DNA from: Abditibacteriaceae bacterium
GTDB lineage: Bacteria; Armatimonadota; Abditibacteriia; Abditibacteriales; Abditibacteriaceae
Direction: 5' to 3'
Assembly: GCA_965277285.1 (NCBI GenBank)
Contig: OZ255721.1
Span: forward strand, 3,662,737-3,694,736
DNA length: 32,000 nucleotides
Position 1 is the stretch's first letter, and every line of letters starts with the position of its first letter. The position numbers were made by a program, and so were the translations under genes. Below, in pieces: positions 1,452-22,524 of this stretch. The notes beneath the pieces are model-generated. The model was not told where the DNA came from, did no database searches, and saw nothing but the letters and a program-made list of their open reading frames with translations.

Positions 1452-2810
1452 ATGCGAAATCTTTCAATTATTGGCGGCGGTTTGGCGGGTTGCGAAGCCG
1501 CGTGGCAAGCCGCGCAAAACGGCGCGCAAGTCGTGCTGTATGAAATGCGTCCGACGCGGCAAACCAAAGTGCACCAAACCGGCGACCTGGCCGAACTGGT
1601 TTGCTCCAATTCGCTGAAATCGAACTTGTTGGACAAAGCAAGCGGACTTCTCAAATGGGAAATGCGGCAATTGGATTCGCTTCTTATTCGCTGCGCCGAC
1701 GAAAGTTCGGTCAATGCCGGAAGCGCGCTCGCCGTTGACCGCATCAAGTTCGCGCAACTGATTACACAACGTTTGGAAGCGCATCCCAGTATCGAAATTC
1801 GGCGCGAGGAAGTGACGCAAATTCCCGAAACGCCGTGCATTGTGGCGTCGGGGCCGCTGACTTCCGAAGCGTTAGCGGACAGCATTAATCGAGTACTCGA
1901 TGGCGAGTTTCTCAACTTCTTCGATGCGGTTTCGCCGATTGTCGACGCCGATACATTGGATTACGAAACGTTGTTTCTCGCCTCGCGCTACGAAAAAGGC
2001 GAAGCGGCGTATTGGAACGCGGCGCTTTCAGAAGAAAAATACGACGAATTGCGCGAGGCGATTTTGTCGGCGGAACTTGCGGAAAGTCACAACGAAGACG
2101 ACGTGCCGTATTTTGAAAGCTGTCTGCCGATTGAAGAACTGGCGCGGCGCGGGCGTTTGACGATGCGTTATGGCGCGTTGCGCGGCGCCGGCTTGACCGA
2201 CCCGGAAACCGGACGCTGGCCGTTCGCCTGCGTGCAATTGCGCTCCGAAAACGTGGAAAACACGATGTATAACCTGGTCGGCTTTCAAACGCGCTTGAAG
2301 TGGCCGGAACAAACGCGTATTTTGCGCTTGATTCCTGGCCTGCAAAACGTCGAAATTGTGCGCTTTGGTGTGATTCACAAAAATATTTTTATCAATTCGC
2401 CGCAGGTTTTGCGCGCGACGTTTCAATCGAAGATGCGCGACGATTTGTTCTTCGCCGGACAACTGACGGGCGTTGAAGGTTACGTCGAAAGCGCGGCGGC
2501 GGGACTTATGGCGGGAATCAACGCCGGTCGAATACTTGATGGGCGCCAAGCCTTAATTTTTCCACGCGAAACCGTTTTAGGTTCGCTGTCTCATTATATT
2601 ACGCAAGCCGATGCGAAACATTTTCAGCCAATGAACTCGAACTGGGCGTTGATGGCACCGCCCGAAAGTTGGTCGGACACGATGCCCAATGGCAAGAAAC
2701 GCAAGGTCAGCAAAGATCAAAAAGCCGAACATTTTGTGACGAGTTCGCAGCAAACGTTGCAGAACTTCATTGAAGAAAACCAGTTGCAACGTCAAAATGC
2801 GACGGTTTGA
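1452..2810 (+). CDS. trmFO: Methylenetetrahydrofolate--tRNA-(uracil-5-)-methyltransferase TrmFO (Gid)
   Basis: The FAD-binding N-terminus 'MRNLSIIGGGLAGCEAAWQAA', 'LVCSNSLKS' and 'FFAGQLTGVEGYVESAAAGLMAG' are typical of TrmFO. The start is taken at ATG 1452, immediately before the GGGLAG fold, and the stop is TGA 2808-2810. Confidence 0.9.
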   Translation: MRNLSIIGGGLAGCEAAWQAAQNGAQVVLYEMRPTRQTKVHQTGDLAELVCSNSLKSNLLDKASGLLKWEMRQLDSLLIRCADESSVNAGSALAVDRIKFAQLITQRLEAHPSIEIRREEVTQIPETPCIVASGPLTSEALADSINRVLDGEFLNFFDAVSPIVDADTLDYETLFLASRYEKGEAAYWNAALSEEKYDELREAILSAELAESHNEDDVPYFESCLPIEELARRGRLTMRYGALRGAGLTDPETGRWPFACVQLRSENVENTMYNLVGFQTRLKWPEQTRILRLIPGLQNVEIVRFGVIHKNIFINSPQVLRATFQSKMRDDLFFAGQLTGVEGYVESAAAGLMAGINAGRILDGRQALIFPRETVLGSLSHYITQADAKHFQPMNSNWALMAPPESWSDTMPNGKKRKVSKDQKAEHFVTSSQQTLQNFIEENQLQRQNATV

Positions 2811-2816
2811 ACGTTC

Positions 2817-2903
2817 GTAGAGCGCACGGCGTGCGTCCGTTAGTGGCAATGTTCACGGCGTTTGGGAAAGCGCAATGCTCAGGGCGCACGCCGTGCGCTC
2901 CCA
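2817..2903. repeat. Pair of self-complementary GAGCGCACGGCGTGCG elements in inverted orientation, in the trmFO-xerC spacer
   Basis: 'gtagagcgcacggcgtgcgtcc' (2817-2838) pairs with 'agggcgcacgccgtgcgctccc' (2881-2902). Each arm is itself a GCGCACG/CGTGCGC dyad. Confidence 0.7.
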
Positions 2904-2917
2904 CCTCAAAACTTCAA

Positions 2918-3973
2918 ATGCACTCTCATCTCGATCATTTCATGCGCTATCTTGAAGACGCCAAAGGCGCGTCGCCCCACACTTTGCGTTCGTATTCCTC
3001 CGATTTGAATCAGTTCATTGCGTGGCTGGAAGCTGAAAAACTGGTGCCCGCCGATGCCGCGCCCGACACCGTCTCATATCTGATGATTCGGCGTTATTTG
3101 GGACATTTGACGCAAAAAGGCTACGAGCGCCGCAGTGTTTTGCGCAAATTGTCGAGCATCAAGGCGTGGTTCAAATGGATGGAACGCGAGGGCGCGGTCG
3201 TCAATAATCCGGCGGATGCCGTGCTTTCTCCCAAAAGTTCGCGCGACTTGCCCGACGTTTTGACGATGAGCGAAGTCGAAGCGATGCTGGCATTGCCCAA
3301 TTCGAGTACTGGATTTGGCGTTCGTGACCGCGCTTTAATGGAAACGCTTTATGCGACGGGTTTGCGCGTGGCCGAATGCGCCGCGATGACCTTGGGCGAT
3401 GTCGATTGGCACATGGGCGAAGTGCGCGTCAAAGGCGGCAAAGGACAAAAAGAACGCATTGTTTTATTGGGACGACCCGCTGTAGCCGCCTTGAACCTTT
3501 ACTTGAACGGAGCGCGTCCGCAATTGATGGCGCGGCGCCAGGACGAACTCGCGGCGACGGCGGATGCGTTGTGGATCAACAGTCGCGGCACAAGGCTTTC
3601 GCCGCACGCGATTTATATTTTGGTTGTCGGATATGCTCGGCGCGCCGGAATTCATAAAAACGTGACGCCGCATACATTGCGCCATTCCTGCGCCACGCAT
3701 TTGCTGGAAGGGGGCGCTGATTTGCGCGTGGTGCAGGAAATTTTGGGACATACGTCGCTTTCGAGTACTCAAATTTATACGCACGTCGGCGCCTCGCATC
3801 TCAAAAAAGTTTATGCGCAAAGCCATCCGCGCGCCGCGCTTGAAAAATCAGCGAACACTTTGCCGCACCACGTTTTGCCGCACCACGTTTTGAATGAGGG
3901 TTCACCCGTTCCACCAACGACATATCCAACGACACCTTCAGCGACGCATGACGAAGATTTCAATTCGTTTTAA
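2918..3973 (+). CDS. xerC: XerC/XerD-type tyrosine site-specific recombinase
   Basis: The N-terminal SAM-like domain is 'YLEDAKGASPHTLRSYSSDLNQFIAWL'. The catalytic region is 'TPHTLRHSCATHLLEGGADLRVVQEILGHTSLSSTQIYTHV' (R..HxxR..Y). It lies directly downstream of trmFO, as in the gid-codV/xerC arrangement known from Firmicutes. The start at ATG 2918 is chosen by homology logic. XerC versus XerD cannot be resolved. Confidence 0.85.
   Translation: MHSHLDHFMRYLEDAKGASPHTLRSYSSDLNQFIAWLEAEKLVPADAAPDTVSYLMIRRYLGHLTQKGYERRSVLRKLSSIKAWFKWMEREGAVVNNPADAVLSPKSSRDLPDVLTMSEVEAMLALPNSSTGFGVRDRALMETLYATGLRVAECAAMTLGDVDWHMGEVRVKGGKGQKERIVLLGRPAVAALNLYLNGARPQLMARRQDELAATADALWINSRGTRLSPHAIYILVVGYARRAGIHKNVTPHTLRHSCATHLLEGGADLRVVQEILGHTSLSSTQIYTHVGASHLKKVYAQSHPRAALEKSANTLPHHVLPHHVLNEGSPVPPTTYPTTPSATHDEDFNSF
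3859..3888 (+). repeat. Perfect in-frame 15-bp tandem duplication (TTTGCCGCACCACGT x2) in the xerC C-terminal tail
   Basis: The units at 3859-3873 and 3874-3888 are identical. They translate as LPHHV-LPHHV in the non-conserved tail. Confidence 0.9.
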
Positions 3974-11951: not shown

Positions 11952-14072
11952 CTAAAGAGTTGCCGGTACGACCTCAAAAGTCACTTGCGCTGTTGTCCAA
12001 TACGCCGGAGGCGCCAGGGCCGCGCCGCGTCGTCGTGTCGCCGAAGACAAGAGCATTTGCGACAGCGGATTGGAAGGTGCGCCGCCGCGCGATGAACTGC
12101 ACAAAATCTGGTTGTCGGCGCCGGGCACTTTTTGTACCCACAACGCGCTGAAATCTGCCGGTTGCTGCGTCGCAATGGCTTTCCAACGCTCGCGCCCATA
12201 CGGTTCGCTGGCGGTCGCAATCAAGCCTTTGATGACGTGCCATTGTCCATCCGCGGGAATGCGATTCAGTTCGCCAATCGGCTGGCGGTCGGGCGGCAAA
12301 ACCGGATTGATGCTGCCGTCGGGCGGCAAATCGAGAACAGTCACGTAAGCATCGACGGGCGACAAGTTGCGCAACTTCAACGTGTAACTGTCGCCTTCTT
12401 TGAAGACCAGATTGTTGCCGTCATTCGGTTTGATATCGCTGCGCGGCGTGGGATCGTTAGCGCCTTTAACGGGCACCAGTTGCATCTCGATTTGCAACAA
12501 AGATTGAGTGCTGGGCGAATTGCCCAGACGATTGAGAAATTGCCAGCGCCATTCGGCGTTGAGGGCTTTGCGCATTTCGTCGAACATTTTTTCGTCGTTG
12601 TTAATGCGCGCCACAATCTGATGATCGCTGCGCCGCTGCACTTCCAACTGATGTCCGACTTGAACAATTGAAACGTCGCAGTTCTGGCGCGTGGCGCTGT
12701 CGTCCATCACGCTCAGGCTTTCGTCTTCGTTGGCGCTCTTTTGCGCCGCTTTCAACTTTTGCACCCAATCGCCGCTGCCATCCAAAAATGCCTTGAGCCG
12801 ATTGTCGCCGTAATTGTGCGCGGTTTCAATGGCGCGCGCCGCCACCAAATCGGCGGACGGGACTTTCGAGTACTCGATGTCCAACTTCGCCTGCGAGGTG
12901 AAGTCATCAACGGATGTAATCGTCGCCGTGGCGAGAAGATTTTTGGCGTCGTTGACATCGCTTCCGGCGCGATACAGGTTGAACGTCGAGCCGACCGACG
13001 CGCCTTGAACGAAACCTGTCGGCAGCGTGACAAGTGTTCCATTTACCTGCGAGACGACCAAATATTTGCCTGCTGGGCGCGCTGTGCCGGAAAACAACAG
13101 TTTGTCGGCGTCACCTTCCATTTGCGGGTTTTGGTTGTCCACTGCGTTTTCGACTTGCGCGCTGACGGTCTCAAACAAGGCGCGATACGTCGTTTGCGGC
13201 GTGGCGTTTTCCAGGGCGCGCGTCAGATAAAGCGTCAAAGCGCCCATCGGCTGGTTTCTATCGTTGGCGGCTTCCTGCGCGATTTGGTCGCTGCGCGTCG
13301 CCGCGATAACGACGTAACCTTGCGCGACGGCCTCGTCTTTTCCCAACCAATCGCTGGCGTCCGCAACGTTGGCGCCGCGCGTTGGCTGTAGAGGTTTCGG
13401 GCCGTCAATTTTCGGGTTCCAGCCGCGCCCGCGTTTGGGCAAACCATTGCCGCCGCGCGTCGCCGTGCCGGAAAAACAACTGTCCAAAAACACCGTGATG
13501 TTGCCTTGAACCTGACCGTTTTTGTCCTGCATCTTCGCTTTCAAGCGGCGCAGCGAATCGCGGATGTCGTCATCCAAAACATCGGCTTTGAGGCCGCTTT
13601 GCGCGCTCTGATCGATGTAATCGAAGGGAATAATCGCCTGGTGCATTCCGCTCATTTTTCGATGTGTCGGGTCGGGCACTTCCTGGCCGTGACCGGAATA
13701 ATGAAAAACGATGATGTCGCCGGGTCGCGCCTGATCGATCAAGTGGTGTTGCCAGGCATCGAGAATGCCTTTTTTGGTCGCTTGCGCGTCTTCCAGCACC
13801 AGAATGTCTTTAGCGGCGAAGCCAAAGCGCGATTCGAGTACTCGTTTCATGGTGGCAATATCGGTCTGGCAATCGAGATTCCACCAATCTTTATCTTCGC
13901 CGCGCCCTCGGTCATAATGGCTGATGCCGACCAGCAGCGCCAGTTTGCGCGGCGTTTTTGTCGTCGCGGTCAGAGGTTTCGTGCTCGACGTTGGCGCGGC
14001 TTGAGCGACATGGCAAAAGTTCAAGGCGCACAAGACGCAAACGCTGATTTTGCTCCAAATGGTGCTTTTCAT
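11952..14072 (-). CDS. Exported caspase-family (peptidase C14) protease with C-terminal DUF4384-like domain
   Basis: The Sec signal is 'MKSTIWSKISVCVLCALNFCHVAQA/AP'. The caspase core is 'LALLVGISHYD...IIVFHYSGHGQ' (His138 in track numbering, codon 13689-13691) and 'VFLDSCFSG' (Cys209, codon 13476-13478). The C-terminal 'LVFKEGDSYTLKLRNLSPVDAYVTVLDLPPDGSINPVLPP' resembles DUF4384. The start is taken at Met11 (14070-14072) behind a GGAGAA RBS. Confidence 0.85.
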   Translation of the reverse strand: MKSTIWSKISVCVLCALNFCHVAQAAPTSSTKPLTATTKTPRKLALLVGISHYDRGRGEDKDWWNLDCQTDIATMKRVLESRFGFAAKDILVLEDAQATKKGILDAWQHHLIDQARPGDIIVFHYSGHGQEVPDPTHRKMSGMHQAIIPFDYIDQSAQSGLKADVLDDDIRDSLRRLKAKMQDKNGQVQGNITVFLDSCFSGTATRGGNGLPKRGRGWNPKIDGPKPLQPTRGANVADASDWLGKDEAVAQGYVVIAATRSDQIAQEAANDRNQPMGALTLYLTRALENATPQTTYRALFETVSAQVENAVDNQNPQMEGDADKLLFSGTARPAGKYLVVSQVNGTLVTLPTGFVQGASVGSTFNLYRAGSDVNDAKNLLATATITSVDDFTSQAKLDIEYSKVPSADLVAARAIETAHNYGDNRLKAFLDGSGDWVQKLKAAQKSANEDESLSVMDDSATRQNCDVSIVQVGHQLEVQRRSDHQIVARINNDEKMFDEMRKALNAEWRWQFLNRLGNSPSTQSLLQIEMQLVPVKGANDPTPRSDIKPNDGNNLVFKEGDSYTLKLRNLSPVDAYVTVLDLPPDGSINPVLPPDRQPIGELNRIPADGQWHVIKGLIATASEPYGRERWKAIATQQPADFSALWVQKVPGADNQILCSSSRGGAPSNPLSQMLLSSATRRRGAALAPPAYWTTAQVTFEVVPATL

Positions 14073-14248
14073 GGTGAAGAAAGTTCTCCGAACAGACGAC
14101 ATCTTTCGCGCTCATTGTGACATATTTTGCGAGAAATGAGAAAACCGCGCTGTCGCACACTTGACAGCCGCCTTGTCGATTTTGCGATATGTCGCGCTAA
14201 GGTTGTTTATATTCACTGAGTTATAAAGAAAGTGTGGAAGGCAAGTCC

Positions 14249-14363
14249 ACGGAATGCCCTGAAAGTAAGAGTGTGTCATTCTGAGCGCAGCGAAGAATCT
14301 AACTTGATGCCAGATTCTTCGCTGCGCTCAGAATGACACACTCTTACTTTCAGGGCATTCCGT
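14249..14363. repeat. Perfect 52-bp-arm inverted repeat (11-nt loop) containing GTCATTCTGAGCGCAGCGAAGAATCT
   Basis: 14249-14300 is the exact reverse complement of 14312-14363. It starts 7 nt downstream of the STAND gene stop and lies upstream of the caspase gene. The core is shared with the repeat at 22286-22373. Confidence 0.95.
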
Positions 14364-14369
14364 CAATTG

Positions 14370-17300
14370 CTATAACGTGTTTTGCGTCAATAATTGCGCG
14401 ATGCGCGCGGCTTCTTTGTCTTGTGCAGGCGACAAAAGTTTTTTATCGCGGAAGGCTTTGAAATCGTCCAGTGCGGTTTGCGCGAAGGTTTTTCCGGCGC
14501 TGATTTGGACGCGACGGTTTTCCAGATAAAGCACTTCGGCTTTGTCGTTTTGCCCCGACAGCAAATACGCGTGCGCCAGATTGACCTTGATCCAGCGTTG
14601 CGATGCGTCGGTTTGCAGGCCGCGCGAAGCCGAAACAACCGCGTCTTGCGGACGATGCGCCAGCAATTGCGCCCACGCCAAAGCACCATAAACTTGCGCT
14701 AAATATTGCGTGTTCACCGTTCGATCACGCTCGTTGGCGGCGCTGCGCACCAGCTCGGCGATGGTCGTCACTCCTTGTTGATACGACGCAATCGCGCGCG
14801 CATAATCGTTCTGCGCGACGTAAACATCCGCCATTTTGTTGAAGATGACAGCTAAATCGCGGCGCGCCTGCGAACTGAAAGGCGACAAATCGGTCAGGAT
14901 TTTGGCGGCTCGTGCGTCGAAATCCAGCGCTTCCTTCGCTTTGTTTTGCGCCAGTCGCAAGTCGCCCATGTTTTTCCACGCAATCGCCAGATCGCGCTGC
15001 GCTTCGGGCGTCGGATTTTGGTGCAGCAAGCGCACGCGCAAATCGAGGCTTTTCCCCAGCGCGTTCTGAGCGTCGCCGATTTTGCCGCCCAGCAACTGCA
15101 ACACGCCGATTTTTTCCAAACTCACCGCCAGGTCGCGCTGCGATTGAGTACTCGATAGAGCGTTTCCGTTCGAGGCCAGCGTTTCGCGGATGGCCAGACT
15201 TTTCTGGTACGAATCCAAGGCTTGCGCGGCCTGGTTGCCCAGAAATTGTGCGTCGCCGATTTTTTCGTAACTCACCGAAAGGCCGCGCTGCGCTTCGCGG
15301 TCGTCGCCATTGCGCGACAATTGAAGCCCGATTTGCAAACTCTTCTGGTAAGCATTGAGCGCACCCGCCGCATCGTTGGTTTCCACTAACAAATCGCCCA
15401 TTTTTTCGTAACTCGCCGCCAGATCGTTTTGCGCTTGGATGCTTGGTCGTTGTTGCGCCAGAGTTTGAAAAATGGCGAAACTTTTGTTGAATTGCTGCAA
15501 GGCCTGGGCGTCGTTGCCCAGCACGACGGCGGTCGAACCGCTGCGCTCGAAGTTGAGCGCCTTTTCGCGTTGCGCTTCGGGCGTGTCGGGGTTCAAGCGC
15601 AAAATTTTGTCGACGATCTGGTCGTTGGTGTCCTGAATCGTTTTCAGAACGGGCAAGCTGCCCGGCACATCTTTCAATTGATCGGGAATCGTATTCGTCC
15701 AAATGTTGATCGCTTGTAGCGCCAGATTTTTCTGCTTTTCGGCGCGCTGCCATTGCCCGAACGAGAACACGCCGAAACCTGTCACCAAAACGAAAAAACC
15801 TGCCGCCACTGATGAAATTGTAACCCGTCGAATGCGACGCGCGCGGCTTTGTTTGCGATGCGAAGATTCGATGTATTCGACCAGGTTTGCGTCGAGATCG
15901 TCGCGGCGCTTGAGCAAAATATCTTCGGCTTCGGCCAGAGGTTTTCCTGGCGGCAGCAATAAATCGGGGTTCTGGTTTTCGCTTTTCCAGCGCGCGGCGG
16001 ATTGTGCCACGCGGTCGCGGGCGCGCAGGAAATCGCGGTTTTCCTCGAGCCAGTTTTGCACGCGCGGCCAGCGTCGCAGCAGCGCTTCGTGTGCCACACC
16101 AACCACAGCGCGCCCATCATCCGCGCAATCCGTGACCAAAAGCCGCGCGGCGACAAACGCTTCCACCAGAGCGCGGCGCGGCGGCGTATCGCACAAGGTT
16201 TCCAGAGGCACGCGCTGTCCCGTCATTCCTGCCGCGTCGCTCTGCTTTCGAGTACTCGAATCGTTCACCGTCACCAGGCAACGCAACACCGATGGCAAGG
16301 CGTTGCGCGCGTCTTCATCCAACTGCGAAAAAACGTCTTCCGCGCGCCGCGCCAGAGCGCCTTCCGGCCCGCCCAGTTCATCGTAAGCCGCAAAAGTGAG
16401 AATGTTATCGGGCGTGCGGCGTTGCCACAATTCATCGAGCGTGAATTCCAAAAGCGGCAAGGCTTCGGGATCGCGCCAGGCGGCTTCGTGCAGCCGTTCG
16501 TCCAATCGCTCGCCAGTTTTCGGGTCGCTTTCAAAACGCAGGCCAGCGGCGCGCGAAGGATTGCGAATCATCTGCCCGACTTCGGCGAAGGTCGGCGGCA
16601 GCAAGTCGTAACTTCCGCTTCCTTCTTTCAAAGCGACAAGTGTCGGAACTTCGGCACACCGCGCATAAAAATCGCTGCGCATCGTCGCCACGACCCAGAC
16701 GGCGCCGCTGCGTGCCAAAGCCGCAATCGCTTCGATGAAACTGCGCCGCGCGTTGTCGCCGATCTTTTCCAGCGTCCACAATTCCTCGAGCTGATCCAGA
16801 ACTAAGAAAAAGCGCGCTTCGGGCGGCGAATCCAAACCTTCGCGCTTGCCCGTATCTTCCGCAGCGCGCTTCAAGGCGGCGCGAATTGGTGCAACCGCGC
16901 GTTCGGGCGCCTGACGCAAAAGCGCCGCGAGTTCCCTTTCGTCCAAGCCGTCTTTGCGCAGTTCTGGCAAGGCGCTTTTGTCCAACAACGACGCGGCCAA
17001 ACCCGCAATCAGGTCGTTCGTTTCGCCACTTTCGAGTACTCGATTGGCGTCTGAAGAAATGGCATCGGCTGCGCGCAAAATGCTCCAGCGCCACAAACCG
17101 ATGTGTTCGATGACGCCCGGCTGCGTGATCGTCGGCAAAACTCCGGCGCGCACCAAAGACGATTTGCCGCTGCCGCTGCGTCCAAAAACCAGCGTGAAGG
17201 CGCAATTTTCGCTCGCGCGCCGCACTAAAATATCGCGGATTTCTCCGATAGCGTGCGTGCGTCCGAAGAAAACCGGCGCGTGTTCCGGCTCGAAAACCGC

Positions 17301-18029
17301 CAGGCCGCGAAACGGCGAACCTCTGTGCCACGAAATCGGCGCCGCGCTTTCCTCGCCCGTCATGTGGCGTGGCAAGCGTTCTTCCACCAGGCGCCGCAAG
17401 TGGTTTTCCAGCATTTCCTCGAACTGATCGGGACTGGAAAAACCATGAAACGCCGCTTTGAACGAAGCCTGCGGGTTGCCAAACCAATGATCGATAAACG
17501 CTTCGAGCGCCTTTTTCTGCGCCAATCGGTCGAGCAAAGCTTGCTCGTTGGACAAAGGCGTGAAGGCTTCGCTGGTTTTGCGATAAACCATCAGGTCGGG
17601 CGCGCCGCGTTCCCGGAAAGCGCGCGCCGCGTCTTCAAATTCCCATTCGGTGCCCGAAGAAAACAGCGAACCGTCTTCGCGGTGGAATTGCGACGGCAAG
17701 CGCGTGCCCAGGCGCGACCACAAGATGCAAATCACGATGTCGGTTTGCGACGGCGGAATGATTTGTTCTTGGAAATGGCCGGTCGCGCGCAACGGCTCGT
17801 GTTCCCATAAAATTGGCTCGAGCCGGATGCAACCCGCGAACTCGCCGTTGATGCGCTCCATCACGCGCGTGGCGATGAGTCTTTCCTGACCGACATCGCC
17901 GGGCGACGAAAGAAAGACGCGCAACGTCCGTTCAACAGCGCATTGCGGTGCCGAATCGAGTACTCGATTCGGCGCTTCGGGCGTTGAAGAGGCGATTTCA
18001 GGCTGAGTTTCGGGAGCGGAAATGGACAT
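14370..18029 (-). CDS. DUF4062 (TIR/deoxyribosyltransferase-like) + nSTAND-type P-loop NTPase + single TM helix + TPR-repeat protein (1219 aa)
   Basis: The N-terminus 'RVFLSSPGDVGQER...DIVICILWSRLGT...GTEWEFEDA' resembles DUF4062. 'SPFRGLAVFEPEHAPVFFGR', Walker A 'FGRSGSGKSSLVRAGVLP' (17157-17183) and Walker B 'FFLVLDQLEELW' are typical of nSTAND1-like NTPases. 'RARRIRRVTISSVAAGFFVLVTGFGVFSFGQW' is a predicted TM helix. Six to seven 42-aa TPR units of the form 'AQRDL[AS]VS[YL]EK[IM]GD...YQKSL' follow. Confidence 0.85.
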   Translation of the reverse strand: MSISAPETQPEIASSTPEAPNRVLDSAPQCAVERTLRVFLSSPGDVGQERLIATRVMERINGEFAGCIRLEPILWEHEPLRATGHFQEQIIPPSQTDIVICILWSRLGTRLPSQFHREDGSLFSSGTEWEFEDAARAFRERGAPDLMVYRKTSEAFTPLSNEQALLDRLAQKKALEAFIDHWFGNPQASFKAAFHGFSSPDQFEEMLENHLRRLVEERLPRHMTGEESAAPISWHRGSPFRGLAVFEPEHAPVFFGRTHAIGEIRDILVRRASENCAFTLVFGRSGSGKSSLVRAGVLPTITQPGVIEHIGLWRWSILRAADAISSDANRVLESGETNDLIAGLAASLLDKSALPELRKDGLDERELAALLRQAPERAVAPIRAALKRAAEDTGKREGLDSPPEARFFLVLDQLEELWTLEKIGDNARRSFIEAIAALARSGAVWVVATMRSDFYARCAEVPTLVALKEGSGSYDLLPPTFAEVGQMIRNPSRAAGLRFESDPKTGERLDERLHEAAWRDPEALPLLEFTLDELWQRRTPDNILTFAAYDELGGPEGALARRAEDVFSQLDEDARNALPSVLRCLVTVNDSSTRKQSDAAGMTGQRVPLETLCDTPPRRALVEAFVAARLLVTDCADDGRAVVGVAHEALLRRWPRVQNWLEENRDFLRARDRVAQSAARWKSENQNPDLLLPPGKPLAEAEDILLKRRDDLDANLVEYIESSHRKQSRARRIRRVTISSVAAGFFVLVTGFGVFSFGQWQRAEKQKNLALQAINIWTNTIPDQLKDVPGSLPVLKTIQDTNDQIVDKILRLNPDTPEAQREKALNFERSGSTAVVLGNDAQALQQFNKSFAIFQTLAQQRPSIQAQNDLAASYEKMGDLLVETNDAAGALNAYQKSLQIGLQLSRNGDDREAQRGLSVSYEKIGDAQFLGNQAAQALDSYQKSLAIRETLASNGNALSSTQSQRDLAVSLEKIGVLQLLGGKIGDAQNALGKSLDLRVRLLHQNPTPEAQRDLAIAWKNMGDLRLAQNKAKEALDFDARAAKILTDLSPFSSQARRDLAVIFNKMADVYVAQNDYARAIASYQQGVTTIAELVRSAANERDRTVNTQYLAQVYGALAWAQLLAHRPQDAVVSASRGLQTDASQRWIKVNLAHAYLLSGQNDKAEVLYLENRRVQISAGKTFAQTALDDFKAFRDKKLLSPAQDKEAARIAQLLTQNTL

Positions 18030-18142: not shown

Positions 18143-18205
18143 CGGCAGAAATGATACGTTGAAACTCTCACTTTGTCATTCTGACGGGCGTTGATTCTGT
18201 CCTTA

Positions 18206-20101
18206 TCATAACCGGAAAACCTGAAAACCGGCGCGCGCCAGAAATTGCGGCAGTTGGCGCGCCGTTTGGCGGTTCATTTCCTGAACATTTGGCGGCAGCT
18301 GTTCCCACGGCAAAAGGTTGGGATTGGTTTTGCGTGCGGCATCGCGCGCGCCCAGCGTCCAGCCGCCGCTTTGCTGTTCTTGCAGCCAGCGCGCGTGTTC
18401 GCGTTGTGCCATGCGTTCGGTTTCCTCGGGCGTGAAAGCGAACGGTTTGGCTTCCCAATCGGCGATGGGCGCGATGTCGCAACCTTCCAAGCGCAATTGC
18501 GTGCCGATAAAATCGGCCTGGCGTCGGTTCTTTTCCTTGATCAATTCCGACAAATCGTCCCATTGCGCCAGCGCTGGATTGTTTTCGTCCGGCGCCAAAC
18601 GTTTTTGTTCGCGCAGATAATTGTCGTGCAGCGAGCGCGCCAGAACTTCGCTGGTGCCGCCCAACACCAGTTCGGGATGACACGAGTACTCGAGAAGCCC
18701 GAAGGCGCGCAAATCGGCGTTCGATGTTGGCGATGAGTCCACGTCGGTGTTTTTTTCGATGACCGAGTTGCTGATGAGCGCGGCGACGCCGTTGCTTTCT
18801 CCGGTGCGCATCAGGATGGGAACGGTCTTCTGCCAGCCGCGCGTTTCCAAACGGTGGCGCAATAAAAGCGCGGCGCCCAAACCTTGCGCTTCATCGCCTA
18901 CGCAAATGTAAATCGCGCTCAAGTGATGGTTTTTATCGTTATCAAAAAGATCGGCGCTTTGAAACGCCGTCGAACCGATTTGTAAATCGCGCGCCTCGAT
19001 TTCGCACGACGCGAACAATCCCGCGTGACGTTGACGCAACAACTCGCACACCGAAGACGCATCACGATCCACCAGAACGATCTTCAAGACTAGCGCCGTT
19101 GCATTGTTGAGGTTTTCTCGATGTTCCTGCCATTGTTGCACGGCGCGCAAAACGACGCGTTGCGCCAATCGTCCGGCGCCGATTACCAGCAAATACGGCG
19201 CTTGCATCGTTGGTTGAAGCGTCGTCGCGTCCGTTGGCGAAGGTTCCGGCGCTGCGAGCAAAGCACTTGTCCAGGGCGGTTGAGCGGAAAGCAGACCACG
19301 CGCGCCGATGTCGAAGACATCGAAAAGCTGCAAGCGAAAGGCGCTGTTGCCACTCACTTCCCAGCGCCGCAACAAGCGCCACAACTCGGAATCCATGATG
19401 TGCGCCGCGCAGGTGAGAACGTGACCGTTGTCATCCTTTGAGGCGGACATTATGTCGCGTGCATGGGCGATAACGGCGGCGTTGACGGCATCGTCGGAGA
19501 CCGCGAACAAGTATTTGGCGTGAGCGATGCGCGCCGCGCGAAGGGTTTCACGGCGCGTGACATCGCCGATCAAGGCGTAAATGCCGCTTTCTTTGCACGC
19601 CGCCAGCAAGTCGTGGTTCGGCTTGTTTTCGACAACGAGTACTCGATAACCTCTTTCGCGGAACGAGCGCGCCAGCAGCAAACCTTTCTGGCTTAGTCCA
19701 CAAATCACAACGTGATCACGCAAAGCGCGCGACTGCACTTCGCGCACGCGGTCGCGGAAGACGGCGCCAAAGGCTTCAAAGGCCGCGAAGCCAGTCACGA
19801 CCGGCATCAACCAGCGCGCGATTTCCAGCGGCCAAGGTAATGTGCCAATTGTGCTGCCACCGAAACTACGGAACTGAAAGGCCGAATAAAAAACGTCGAT
19901 CAGACGCCGCGACGGGAAAAAAAGATGCAGGCCAATGCAGCCCAGTGTGTAGCCGGTCAGCCATAATCCCAGCAAAACGAACCAGCGCCATTGCTGCCAC
20001 CAAGATGCCACGCGCTGCATCACTTCCTGTCGTCGCGCGGCAGAAGCGCCGCGATTTTTCAGGTTGATGCCACTATTTTGAAGTAAAAGGTTTTCGTTCA
20101 T
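18206..20101 (-). CDS. Membrane protein: 2 TM helices + tandem RCK/TrkA_N Rossmann domains + C-terminal RyR domains
   Basis: The TM segments are 'WRWFVLLGLWLTGYTLGCIGLHLFF' and 'WPLEIARWLMPVVTGFAAFEAFGAVF'. The Rossmann segments are 'HVVICGLSQKGLLLARSFRERGYRVLVVE' and 'YLLVIGAGRLAQRVV'. The C-terminal 'MAQREHARWLQEQQSGGWTLGARDAARKTNPNLLPWEQLPPNVQEMNRQTARQLPQFL' fits the RyR consensus (H..W......GW..G......K..P.L.PW..LP), and a second half-repeat 'LARSLHDNYLREQ...WDDLSELIKEKNRRQADFI' precedes it. The start is uncertain (20101, or 20209 as in the track). Confidence 0.8.
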   Translation of the reverse strand: MNENLLLQNSGINLKNRGASAARRQEVMQRVASWWQQWRWFVLLGLWLTGYTLGCIGLHLFFPSRRLIDVFYSAFQFRSFGGSTIGTLPWPLEIARWLMPVVTGFAAFEAFGAVFRDRVREVQSRALRDHVVICGLSQKGLLLARSFRERGYRVLVVENKPNHDLLAACKESGIYALIGDVTRRETLRAARIAHAKYLFAVSDDAVNAAVIAHARDIMSASKDDNGHVLTCAAHIMDSELWRLLRRWEVSGNSAFRLQLFDVFDIGARGLLSAQPPWTSALLAAPEPSPTDATTLQPTMQAPYLLVIGAGRLAQRVVLRAVQQWQEHRENLNNATALVLKIVLVDRDASSVCELLRQRHAGLFASCEIEARDLQIGSTAFQSADLFDNDKNHHLSAIYICVGDEAQGLGAALLLRHRLETRGWQKTVPILMRTGESNGVAALISNSVIEKNTDVDSSPTSNADLRAFGLLEYSCHPELVLGGTSEVLARSLHDNYLREQKRLAPDENNPALAQWDDLSELIKEKNRRQADFIGTQLRLEGCDIAPIADWEAKPFAFTPEETERMAQREHARWLQEQQSGGWTLGARDAARKTNPNLLPWEQLPPNVQEMNRQTARQLPQFLARAGFQVFRL

Positions 20102-20281
20102 TGAAGAAGAGAAAACGAAAACTTCCGCTTTCAATCCTGTTATTGTGATTAACCAACGGCGCGGCGGCAAGTCAGGAAGGAAACCTTGGCGTTGTCGGTC
20201 TGGTTGCATTCAGAGCGAAAACGGAAACCTGAGAGAAGGTTCAAAAGGTTTTGAACCTGGCTGAATGTAATAATAAATAGA

Positions 20282-20785
20282 ATGGAAAGAATTGTTGTGA
20301 TCGGCTCGGGAGGTTCAGGAAAATCCACCTTGGCCTGTCAGATCGCCAACATTCGTGGTATTAAGGTTGTGCATTTGGATGCATTCTATTGGCGGTCGGG
20401 TTGGGTCGCTACACCTGAAGACGAGTGGCAAAACATCGTTAAAGGTTTGGTCGTGGAAAATTAATGGGTGATGGATGGAAACTTTGGTGGAACTCGTCGA
20501 TTGCGTTTTGAGGCTTCGGATACCATTATTTTTCTTGACTTTACTCGCGCACTTTGTATCCGTCGTGTGTTATGGCGGCGTTGGCGCTACCGAAGCAAAA
20601 CAAGACCTGACATGGGCGCAGGATGTACGGAGAAGATTGATGGGGAATTCCTCAAGTGGATATGGAATTTCCCCAACAACAGCAGGCCAAAGATTATGAA
20701 GGAAATTGAAGACTATAAACAAGGTCGCAATGTCTTCATTTTGCGTCACCCCAATCAAGTGAAACGATTTATAAAGCACCTGTAA
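20282..20785 (+). pseudogene. Adenylate-kinase-like P-loop protein ('topology modulation protein' family) broken by one in-frame TAA
   Basis: 'MERIVVIGSGGSGKSTLA...WQNIVKGLVVEN*WVMDGNFGGTRRLRFEASDTIIFLD' reads through in one frame, and track ORFs 20282..20464 and 20468..20785 share that frame. The TAA is at 20462-20464. Local GC is about 43-48% on two 60-nt lines I counted, against 67% on one line at 16021 (bulk about 60% by eye). Confidence 0.7.
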
Positions 20786-21120
20786 AAGCACCCGCAAGCG
20801 TATACAAGCCATTTTGCTGACAAGGACACCAGAGCAGCAAAGTAACATATTCAACCTTCATGCTTTCGAGTACTCGAGTAGTCTTAAGTGGCACAACTTC
20901 AAGCGGCGGTAGTTTGCACATTGGTGCGGTCGCGGACACGATGTTGCGTGATGTCGTGACTTCGGATTTCAGTGCGCGATTGACGGCGGAAGATTGGAAT
21001 CGCATTCTCGATCCGGTTTGCACAATCGCCTCCGACGAACTATTTTAAAGAATTTTCGCAGGACGCAAGCTCGTATCGAGGCGTCGCGGCACGTCCCGAA
21101 CTGCTACAAAACATAGAGCG

Positions 21121-22165: not shown

Positions 22166-22524
22166 GAACCGCCAAGACGCGAAGACACGCAGAGAAGGAA
22201 GAATGAATATCGAGTACTTGAAGTTGCAACTTTGTCATTCTGAGAGGGTGTATAGGAAAGCCGAAAAGCAACAGAAAAAGCTCGAAACTATCAGTTTGGT
22301 CATTCTGAGCGCAGCGAAGAATCTAATTGCAGTTAGATTCTTCGCTGCGCTCAGAATGACCAAACTGATAGTTTAACGGCCCATTTTACAATTCCTATGC
22401 ACCTCTCAGAATGACAAACTGCGAGTTTGACGGTTGTTTGGCTACATCTTTCTATGACTTTCTCCACACAGTGTTACAACAATCCCGATTTTCTCTCCTG
22501 GCGTTTTTGGCGTCTTGGCGGTTC
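22166..22524. repeat. Three-layer nested inverted-repeat structure (~360 bp)
   Basis: Outer arms: 'gaaccgccaagacgc' 22166-22180 with 'gcgtcttggcggttc' 22510-22524. Middle arms: 'tttgtcattctgagagggtgtatagga' 22231-22257 with 'tcctatgcacctctcagaatgacaaa' 22393-22418. Inner arms are a perfect 40-bp pair at 22286-22325 and 22334-22373, containing GTCATTCTGAGCGCAGCGAAGAATCTA. Confidence 0.9.

Follow-up and report, generated by a model that had tools for sequence, protein, structure and literature searches.

To our knowledge, all characterized bacterial defense proteins of the STAND (signal transduction ATPases that have numerous domains) and NLR-like (resembling nucleotide-binding receptors with leucine-rich repeats) types sense their triggers in the cytoplasm. 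Sensor-NTPase contact is believed to keep these proteins inactive, and STAND NTPases switch by nucleotide-dependent oligomerization. In this study, a gene from an Abditibacteriaceae bacterium was analyzed together with its surroundings, a 32,000-nucleotide stretch of contig OZ255721.1 (GenBank assembly GCA_965277285.1) that is hereafter called the window. The predicted product combines an N-terminal NIR (DUF4062-like) domain, an nSTAND1 NTPase, a single transmembrane helix, and C-terminal tetratricopeptide repeats (TPRs). We lean toward the view that it is an NLR-like receptor that spans the membrane and has its NADase effector in the cytoplasm. In silico evidence supports the topological reading well, and the protein can be described as a predicted NIR-STAND defense-type protein whose sensor has moved across the membrane. 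It typifies a large, under-annotated family rather than being an isolated oddity. The family may sense threats at the cell envelope.

Comparison with described systems

Three 2026 preprints report that DUF4062, now called NIR, is a TIR-like NADase with a catalytic glutamate that acts in antiphage defense (bioRxiv 10.64898/2026.09.04.749371, 10.64898/2026.05.01.722283, and 10.64898/2026.06.25.731849). According to these preprints, an Avs2 STAND protein carries NIR as its N-terminal effector, as do the Vulcan, Vesta, Swarozyc, and Evangelion systems, and the domain is also present in human TEP1. The required glutamate lies ~100 residues into the domain, and the NIR proteins so far tested all deplete NAD+ in antiphage defense. 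A preliminary description of our gene, made from the sequence alone, had stated that DUF4062 has no established activity; that statement is out of date, as NADase activity has been shown in the preprints.

PsAvs2 and other NIR-STAND-repeat proteins have the same order as our protein, with an N-terminal NIR domain, a central STAND module, and C-terminal TPR-type repeats (Le Mouellic et al., bioRxiv 10.64898/2026.09.04.749371), and PsAvs2 likewise has a conserved glutamate ~100 residues into the NIR domain. PsAvs2 differs in that its trigger, phage terminase, is sensed in the cytoplasm. The NTPase described here is an nSTAND1 that matches no PADLOC Avs model, the NIR domain is divergent and scores below the Pfam cut-off, and a membrane helix lies between the NTPase and the repeats, whereas the word "transmembrane" is absent from all three preprints, the one on PsAvs2 included. 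The layout and working of our protein may be regarded as Avs-like, but it is not classed as a member of the Avs family because it matches no PADLOC Avs model.

The NTPase belongs to the same clade (PF20703) as that of the nSTAND1 conflict systems, where it is predicted to serve as the switch against invaders, with effectors at the N terminus and repeats at the C terminus (Kaur, Iyer, Burroughs, and Aravind, eLife 2021, PMC8195603). The effectors of those systems are effector-associated domains (EADs), death-like domains, TIR, caspase, and others, but not DUF4062, and the text of that paper describes no membrane helix after the NTPase. "Transmembrane STAND ATPases" have been named once, in passing, as sensors that form fusions with Pepco-associated proteases (Evans et al., bioRxiv 10.1101/2025.11.14.688446), and a periplasmic sensor has been predicted for one NACHT-CLec protein diversified by a diversity-generating retroelement (Dore et al., 10.1101/2023.09.22.558884). 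Like our protein, these are predicted membrane-spanning NTPases with sensors possibly outside the cytoplasm. However, their effectors (a protease with a Pepco pore, and others) and sensors (C-type-lectin fold) differ, the mentions are passing ones without analysis or experiment, and the nSTAND1 examples of Dore et al. are predicted to be cytoplasmic. No analysis or experiment on membrane-spanning STAND proteins was found in the literature searched.

DdvA is a transmembrane anti-sigma factor whose periplasmic TPR-CHAT part controls a CBASS/CRISPR island and is thought to clip its own linker (PMC11506125). It resembles our protein in its single-pass topology with the N terminus inside and the C terminus outside (N-in/C-out), and in having periplasmic TPRs plus a caspase-family protease as the proposed sensing unit of a defense pathway (PMC11506125). 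Its output, however, is the release of an extracytoplasmic function (ECF) sigma factor by regulated proteolysis instead of an NTPase-NADase, and whereas DdvA contains its protease as a fused part, the one found here is encoded separately and secreted. Toll-like receptors, TIR-TM-TPR proteins (TM, transmembrane helix), and kinase-TM-sensor proteins (such as PknB and PknD) also have a repeat sensor outside, one helix, and a TIR-like or kinase domain inside, and the TIR-TM-TPR and Pkinase-TM-TPR proteins carry the same type of TPR as our protein. These proteins are activated by ligand-induced clustering, as proposed for our protein below. Unlike in our protein, in none of these does a STAND NTPase separate the effector from the helix, and Toll-like receptors have the opposite polarity, with the N terminus outside. 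The NIR effector activity is already known and the idea of a transmembrane STAND protein has been touched on; the analysis of a predicted extracytoplasmic NLR-type sensor is, as far as the literature searched shows, new.

A predicted membrane helix as a family trait

The gene occupies positions 14370 to 18029 of the window on the minus strand, as do all of its parts described below. It starts with ATG and encodes 1219 residues (open reading frame list and Pfam), and an identical protein (P0001) occurs in a public collection on a 3.83-Mb contig. Residue numbers refer to the 1219-residue protein and coordinates to the window; P and L codes denote relatives and their loci, respectively. From the N to the C terminus, the protein consists of a divergent DUF4062 (NIR) domain, nSTAND1, a basic stretch, an uncharged helix of 23 residues, and ~6 to 8 TPRs of the kinesin light chain (KLC) type. 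The preliminary description of this open reading frame as a STAND NTPase with a helix between the ATPase and the TPR array is exact in position, and all of the peptides that it quoted were found in the translation: VFLSSPGDVGQER, DIVICILWSRLGT, SPFRGL...FFGR, GTEWEFEDA (residues 126 to 134), GRSGSGKSS (283 to 291), LVLDQLEE (409 to 416), HRKQSRARRIRR (724 to 735), and VTISSVAAGFFVLVTGFGVFSFG (736 to 758).

The helix was scored as the most hydrophobic 19-mer on the Kyte-Doolittle scale, with a threshold of 1.6, and lysine and arginine residues (K/R) were counted in the 15-residue flanks. The most hydrophobic 19-mer of the protein starts at residue 736 and scores 1.95; the runner-up, at 1.48, is a core strand of the NTPase. 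This maximum falls in the 23 uncharged residues of VTISSVAAGFFVLVTGFGVFSFG (positions 15756 to 15824), a predicted single transmembrane helix, and the basic juxtamembrane stretch HRKQSRARRIRR (positions 15825 to 15860) directly before it is predicted to lie at the cytoplasmic face. The 15-residue flank preceding the helix has 7 K/R and the one following it 3, which bears out the earlier observation of a 23-residue hydrophobic segment following a very basic stretch.

The same arrangement was found throughout the family. In a sample of 189 proteins, which gave 162 unique segments, the 19-mer was sought just past the end of the NTPase module. The score was ≥1.6 in 157 of the 162 segments, and the uncharged run had a median length of 22 amino acids (range, 19 to 29). 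K/R averaged 6.1 on the N-terminal side versus 2.95 on the C-terminal side, with the N-terminal side higher in 156 of the 162. A further 100 cluster representatives gave 92 scores of ≥1.6 and 5 more between 1.47 and 1.59, so that ~97% of ~260 relatives have a hydrophobic run of ~22 amino acids at the same place. Across 106 aligned relatives, the segment keeps its hydrophobicity but no residue identity, as expected of a lipid-facing span and unlike a packed soluble helix. The helix is kept whether TPR, WD40, RHS, PDZ, or CHASE2 domains come after it. Only two of the relatives lacking it (P0297 and P0184) were domain scanned, and both have cytoplasmic domains instead.

More than 5,000 homologues were retrieved at an E value of ≤1e-5. 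A profile search with the N-terminal domain among 1.84 billion sequences gave 8,231, 4,199, and 1,961 representatives of 50%-identity clusters at E values of ≤1e-3, 1e-10, and 1e-30, respectively. Judged from these sequences, the predicted helix is a hallmark of a family of ~2,000 or more 50%-identity clusters. The preliminary description had presented the protein as a transmembrane variant of the STAND paradigm. The predicted single-pass helix with its positive-inside bias agrees with that proposal, but the trait is family-wide and the idea had been touched on in the literature before.

Predicted topology

An N-in/C-out topology is most likely. The protein has no N-terminal signal peptide; its N terminus is a hydrophilic extension of 33 residues (positions 17931 to 18029) without a hydrophobic segment, and most homologues start at a point corresponding to residues ~31 to 36. 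Because there is no signal peptide, the predicted span is single, and the ATP and NAD+ required by the NTPase and the NADase are cytoplasmic, the C terminus is predicted to be outside. This matches the placement of the NTPase in the cytoplasm and the TPRs outside that the preliminary description had derived from the positive-inside rule, which is further supported by the K/R excess across the family, the secreted neighbors described below, and relatives with other domains after the NTPase.

In P0089, the helix at residue 678 is directly followed by CHASE2 (residues 699 to 966) and then by three more hydrophobic helices. CHASE2 is an established extracytoplasmic sensor, and this arrangement is its standard layout. 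In P0109, the helix at residue 679 is followed by a caspase domain, which we read as lying outside the cytoplasm. The two helix-less relatives continue after the NTPase with HisKA plus HATPase_c (P0297) and with a second NIR domain (P0184), all of which are read as cytoplasmic. TPR arrays related to those of our protein were found in TIR-TM-TPR, Pkinase-TM-TPR, and signal-peptide-TPR proteins, but some of the TIR-TPR proteins that have them are cytosolic. An outer membrane, and with it a periplasm, is indicated for the host by the LptC/LptA/LptD-type and LptB-like proteins encoded in the window, and every locus with a named phylum among the 80 best loci belongs to a diderm phylum.

C-terminal domain and sensor-like evolution

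The C-terminal domain (residues 759 to 1219; positions 14373 to 15755), the predicted periplasmic sensor, consists of a linker and ~6 to 8 KLC-type TPRs. TPR_12 matched in 2 stretches at 56.3 bits (cut-off, 30.1), TPR_1 and TPR_2 matched at residues 1061 to 1086, and four further regular repeats of 44 to 47 amino acids, starting at residues 865, 912, 1009, and 1054, were recognized by pattern. With flanking units, ~6 to 8 repeats can be read, and the earlier count of six to seven was fair. The domain contains no cysteine.

This is the fastest-diverging part of the protein. Compared with P0002, P0003, and P0004, identities are 94, 76, and 75% for the NIR domain and 84, 69, and 55% for the NTPase, and they fall to 76, 53, and 43% for the C terminus. 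In the family, a constant NIR-nSTAND1-helix cassette of ~700 residues is joined to a C-terminal module that is swapped among TPR, WD40 propellers, RHS, PDZ, and CHASE2. Several genomes contain at least two paralogues, such as IAD21_04495 and IAD21_06150, and two each are encoded on JBBSTH010000003.1 and JANPJS010000084.1. By analogy, a constant effector, a variable far end, and paralogue expansion resemble the usual signature of an immune-receptor repertoire.

The NIR domain as predicted effector

The core of the DUF4062/NIR-like domain (residues 34 to 158; positions 17556 to 17930) is a predicted cytoplasmic NADase effector. The preliminary description had called residues 1 to 150 or so DUF4062-like, and family profiles support this. 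With the query alone, Pfam DUF4062 (PF13271) matched at an E value of 0.0018 (18.8 to 19.2 bits; cut-off, 24.7), with all 82 profile positions covered. DUF4062 was the sole Pfam family matched in 30 of 31 aligned family members (best E value, 2.5e-6), and the NIR domain is common to all of the 120 best full-length homologues (40 to 94% identity). The second NIR copy of P0184 scores 42.6 bits, which is over the Pfam cut-off, and hhalign aligned the family profile with this copy at 99.8% probability (E value, 4.3e-29). The N terminus of our protein also matched that of the PADLOC candidate defense protein PDC-S60 over 120 positions (E value, 6.2e-9). The invariant columns of the 31-sequence alignment comprise SSPGDV, W-E, L-W-x-R-x-G-T, and T127-x-x-E130-F-E-x-A134. 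Because of these family-level matches and the invariant motif, the DUF4062/NIR assignment, which rests on sequence profiles, is well supported at the family level.

Glu130 (codon at positions 17640 to 17642), within T127-x-x-E130-x-x-x-A134 of SGTEWEFEDA, is the candidate catalytic glutamate. Its column (E100 in the A1/A2 numbering) is invariant in 31 of 31 sequences and aligns with the glutamate of a bona fide DUF4062 domain, the P0184 copy, in hhalign. The residue lies ~100 residues into the domain, a position like that of the required glutamates of PsAvs2 (E108), KpSwz (E97), Vulcan (E98), and Vesta (E103). An AlphaFold2 model of the N-terminal domain (210 amino acids; predicted local distance difference test [pLDDT], 83.7; predicted template modeling score [pTM], 0.80) forms a beta-alpha-beta three-layer sandwich. 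A sequence-profile search of the PDB with the domain matched nothing meaningful.

A conserved helical extension or linker (residues 159 to 238; positions 17316 to 17555) connects the NIR core to the NTPase and is kept in 120 of the 120 best homologues; in the model, linker helices span residues 132 to 153 and 170 to 187 (A1 numbering). P0009, P0013 to P0017, P0020, and P0022 have an extra 260 to 390 residues before the NIR domain, and Pfam found no match in this region of P0013.

The nSTAND1 NTPase

The protein is, by sequence, a STAND NTPase of the nSTAND1 clade. PF20703 matched at 312.6 bits (cut-off, 27.1; E value, 7.5e-93), covering profile positions 1 to 378 of 379. The match spans residues 239 to 688 (positions 15966 to 17315); residues 235 to 470 or so had been described as nSTAND1-like. 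Walker A (GxxGxGKS) and Walker B (hhhhD-x-x-E) are both intact. The former is GRSGSGKSS (positions 17157 to 17183) and the latter LVLDQLEE (positions 16782 to 16805); in the 106 aligned relatives, Walker A, the D, Q, and E-E of Walker B, and further positions of the NTPase are kept at ≥95%.

Secreted proteins encoded next to the predicted receptor

The gene downstream of the receptor gene (positions 11952 to 14102, minus strand) encodes a secreted caspase-like peptidase (Peptidase_C14; E value, 1.2e-21) with a weak DUF4384 match. The protein has a signal-peptide-like N terminus ending in ...HVAQA|AP and the His and Cys motifs HYSGHG and DSCFSG. A C14 caspase is directly downstream in the window, in L004, in Abditibacteriota IAD-21 (48-bp gap), and in L006, and flanking genes differ among the window, IAD-21, and L006 despite the same STAND-caspase adjacency. 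This secreted caspase is a probable periplasmic partner of the receptor. As a universal partner of the family it was rejected, since the adjacency is specific to the Abditibacteriota-like clade (~6 of ~76 distinct loci). Assignment to an EACC1-caspase two-gene system (Kaur et al. 2020) was rejected as well: caspase_w_EACC1 (NCBIfam) scored 39.4 bits against a cut-off of 140, no EACC1-like small gene lies beside the caspase gene, and the caspase has a signal peptide.

Elsewhere, the downstream gene encodes a signal-peptide DUF4384 protein (L014 and L015) or, in ~15 gammaproteobacterial loci, a signal-peptide Cys-rich protein of ~490 amino acids. Signal peptides on the product of the adjacent downstream gene are seen in two separate clades, the Abditibacteriota-like and the gammaproteobacterial one. 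Secreted TPR-CHAT or C14-PEGA-TPR proteins adjoin family members at positions 15907 to 19074 of L006, 14549 to 18343 of L015, and 7391 to 9871 of L014. These gene contents suggest a periplasmic network of TPR and caspase-family proteins in Abditibacteriota-like genomes.

Proposed mechanism and alternatives

In the mechanism that we propose, the periplasmic TPRs would bind an envelope cue, candidates being a protein from a phage or competitor, damage to the envelope, or the condition of a secreted partner protein. In Apaf-1/MalT-type STAND proteins, the sensor folds back on the NTPase. Here, the membrane would stop the sensor from doing so, and the signal would instead pass by ligand-driven clustering of the ectodomains and helices, following a logic like that of Toll-like receptors and receptor kinases. 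Clustering would let the NTPase modules oligomerize, as established for STAND proteins, and oligomerization would unite the NIR domains, leading by analogy with other NIR proteins to NAD+ hydrolysis and arrest or death. The secreted caspase would probably take part on the periplasmic side. In its full form, this is a true transmembrane NLR in which periplasmic repeats detect an extracytoplasmic cue, one helix relays the signal to the STAND NTPase without an autoinhibitory contact between sensor and NTPase, and the output is NAD+ depletion. We regard that full form as a real possibility, though not yet a probable one; phage adsorption or ejection machinery, an incoming toxin, and damage to a guarded secreted partner such as the caspase are the candidate cues.

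Several observations weigh against this reading. The approximate Hessa-scale sum of the query helix is +1.5 kcal/mol, which is slightly unfavorable (family median, -0.1) and marginal, yet within the range of real helices. The cysteine-count parity of the C-terminal parts gave no export signature (even numbers made up 85 of the 164 counts above zero; p = 0.70). The single-sequence DUF4062 score of 18.8 bits is below the Pfam cut-off of 24.7, and the comparison with TIR folds that the preliminary description had suggested came out divided. Foldseek with the 210-residue model placed the RPS4 TIR at rank 2 (E value, 3e-3; TM scores, 0.43/0.53) and the Cat1 TIR at rank 5 among flavodoxins, a weak result, but no TIR was among the top 50 with a 128-residue core model (pLDDT, 74); trimming worsened the outcome, and the two models together did not separate TIR from generic flavodoxin-like folds. 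The only PADLOC match was PDC-S60 at the N terminus, with no Avs-type model for the NTPase and no system-level assignment. The strong hairpin between the STAND and caspase genes (see below) argues against tight cotranscription, and the window is no evident defense island, as the neighbors are housekeeping or envelope genes.

For the transmission step, the main alternative is regulated proteolysis with the same topology. On a periplasmic cue, the secreted caspase (TPR-CHAT in relatives) would clip off the linker or TPRs, and the NTPase-NADase, rid of its bulky ectodomain, would be freed to assemble. The recurrence of the C14 caspase directly downstream in differing contexts, the secreted TPR-CHAT and C14-PEGA-TPR proteins of L006, L014, and L015, the caspase fused after the helix in P0109, and the precedent of DdvA (PMC11506125) all favor this possibility. 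However, the clade-restricted adjacency leaves most family members with other neighbors or none, the 52-bp perfect hairpin separates the receptor and caspase genes, and the receptor has no known cleavage site, so that we consider proteolytic release unlikely.

A non-immune role is quite improbable. In that case, the protein would be a transmembrane STAND for envelope homeostasis, cell-cell recognition, or development, with NIR as a regulated metabolic or signaling enzyme. The housekeeping and envelope context (Lpt, glycosyltransferases, Fpg, and TrmFO) with no known defense gene nearby would fit, as would the histidine-kinase output of P0297 and ~18 loci that pair the family with a possible SLOG-SLATT protein, a pairing that hints at a nucleotide signal over plain NAD+ depletion. 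Against this stand the antiphage NAD+ depletion by all NIR proteins so far tested, the match of the N terminus to PDC-S60, and the combination of paralogue expansion and sensor swapping, which is typical of immune receptors.

Inside-out signaling is a weaker and very improbable alternative for transmission. As in an apoptosome facing outward, the cytoplasmic part would sense, and its oligomers would cluster the periplasmic TPRs, which would recruit and activate the secreted caspase to degrade envelope proteins. TPRs often serve as scaffolds that recruit proteins, caspase-9 is activated by proximity on Apaf-1 oligomers, and the caspase adjacency and the P0109 fusion are compatible with such an order of events. 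Nevertheless, NIR is the constant and most conserved part, and members of its family have been shown to act as effectors rather than sensors; the variable and swapped C-terminal part bears the usual mark of a sensor, and most relatives have no caspase nearby.

A last, highly improbable possibility is that the segment is a monotopic or re-entrant anchor or a buried helix, with both halves cytoplasmic and the TPRs sensing a membrane-proximal event such as phage DNA entry: it would suit the marginal insertion energy, the occurrence of this TPR type in TIR-TPR proteins that are clearly cytosolic, and the cytosolic sensors of all characterized bacterial STAND proteins, but the uncharged run is one span in length and too short for a hairpin, the near-universal strong K/R asymmetry is unexpected for a segment with cytoplasm on both sides, residue-level conservation would be seen in a packed helix, and the CHASE2 variant, the cytoplasmic domains of helix-less variants, and the secreted neighbor proteins point the other way.

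If the transmembrane NLR reading is true, a large family with a far-side sensor would mean that a stimulus outside the cytoplasm can drive switches of the NLR type, with a different activation logic, by clustering or proteolysis. Outside sensing of the Toll-like receptor type and oligomerization of the NLR type would be joined in a single polypeptide that exists in thousands of variants and whose ectodomains can be exchanged, and the family would offer a handle on what bacteria detect at the envelope before or during invasion. There is also an annotation gap, since the NIR clade of ~2,000 clusters at 50% identity (E value of ≤1e-30) scores below the Pfam cut-off and is invisible to PF13271-based censuses.

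Other features of the window

A repeat search found a 52-bp perfect inverted repeat with an 11-nucleotide spacer (positions 14249 to 14363) that takes up much of the gap separating the STAND stop codon from the caspase gene. It resembles an extragenic palindrome of the repeated kind and might be a terminator or a miniature mobile element, and it may terminate or stabilize the STAND transcript, which makes cotranscription of the STAND and caspase genes uncertain. A related palindromic copy at positions 22295 to 22364, between the HAD and PMT genes, shares the core GTCATTCTGAGCGCAGCGAAGAATCT.

Three genes lie on the same (minus) strand with gaps of 176 and 267 bp: a 2TM-TrkA_N-RyR gene (positions 18206 to 20209), the STAND gene, and the caspase gene. 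A promoter-like site is located upstream of the STAND gene (positions 18179 to 18151, minus strand). The protein encoded at positions 18206 to 20209 has two N-terminal hydrophobic helices, TrkA_N (an NAD-binding RCK domain), and a C-terminal RyR domain. TrkA_N-RyR homologues occur near family members in Abditibacteriales and in two Bacteroidales metagenome-assembled genomes (MAGs), and in L010 and L058 they adjoin the SLOG-like gene described below for gammaproteobacterial loci; an RyR-only match lies beside a family member in one Verrucomicrobia MAG. Outside the window, the loci concerned are L004, L010, L058, L064, and L054. That the TrkA_N-RyR protein might be an NAD(H)- or nucleotide-gated membrane effector is pure speculation, and a literature search on bacterial RyR/TrkA pairing found nothing relevant.

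The gammaproteobacterial loci L030 to L055 have a conserved three-gene layout of NIR-nSTAND1-TM-TPR, the secreted Cys-rich protein of ~490 amino acids, in which Pfam found no match, and a protein of ~590 amino acids. The latter has the motif VAVTGHRDL at its start and matches SLATT weakly, below the cut-off (E value, 1e-4). If it is a SLOG-SLATT pore-former, NIR in these loci might make a nucleotide signal, not only deplete NAD+.

The other genes of the window are of the housekeeping or envelope type and encode TrmFO/GidA, an XerC-type recombinase, a GAF-SpoIIE phosphatase, Fpg, DUF1003, glycosyltransferases, and Lpt proteins. The tyrosine recombinase (positions 2807 to 3973, plus strand; Phage_integrase with a SAM-like N-domain) is most simply a housekeeping enzyme of the XerC/D type because its gene directly follows TrmFO/GidA. 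No tRNA gene was found in the window. A small P-loop kinase-like gene of ~168 amino acids (GSGGSGKST...) at positions 20282 to 20788 (plus strand) is broken by a single in-frame TAA at positions 20462 to 20464 and is either a nonsense pseudogene or the product of a sequencing error; it sits in a stretch of lower G+C content (0.47).

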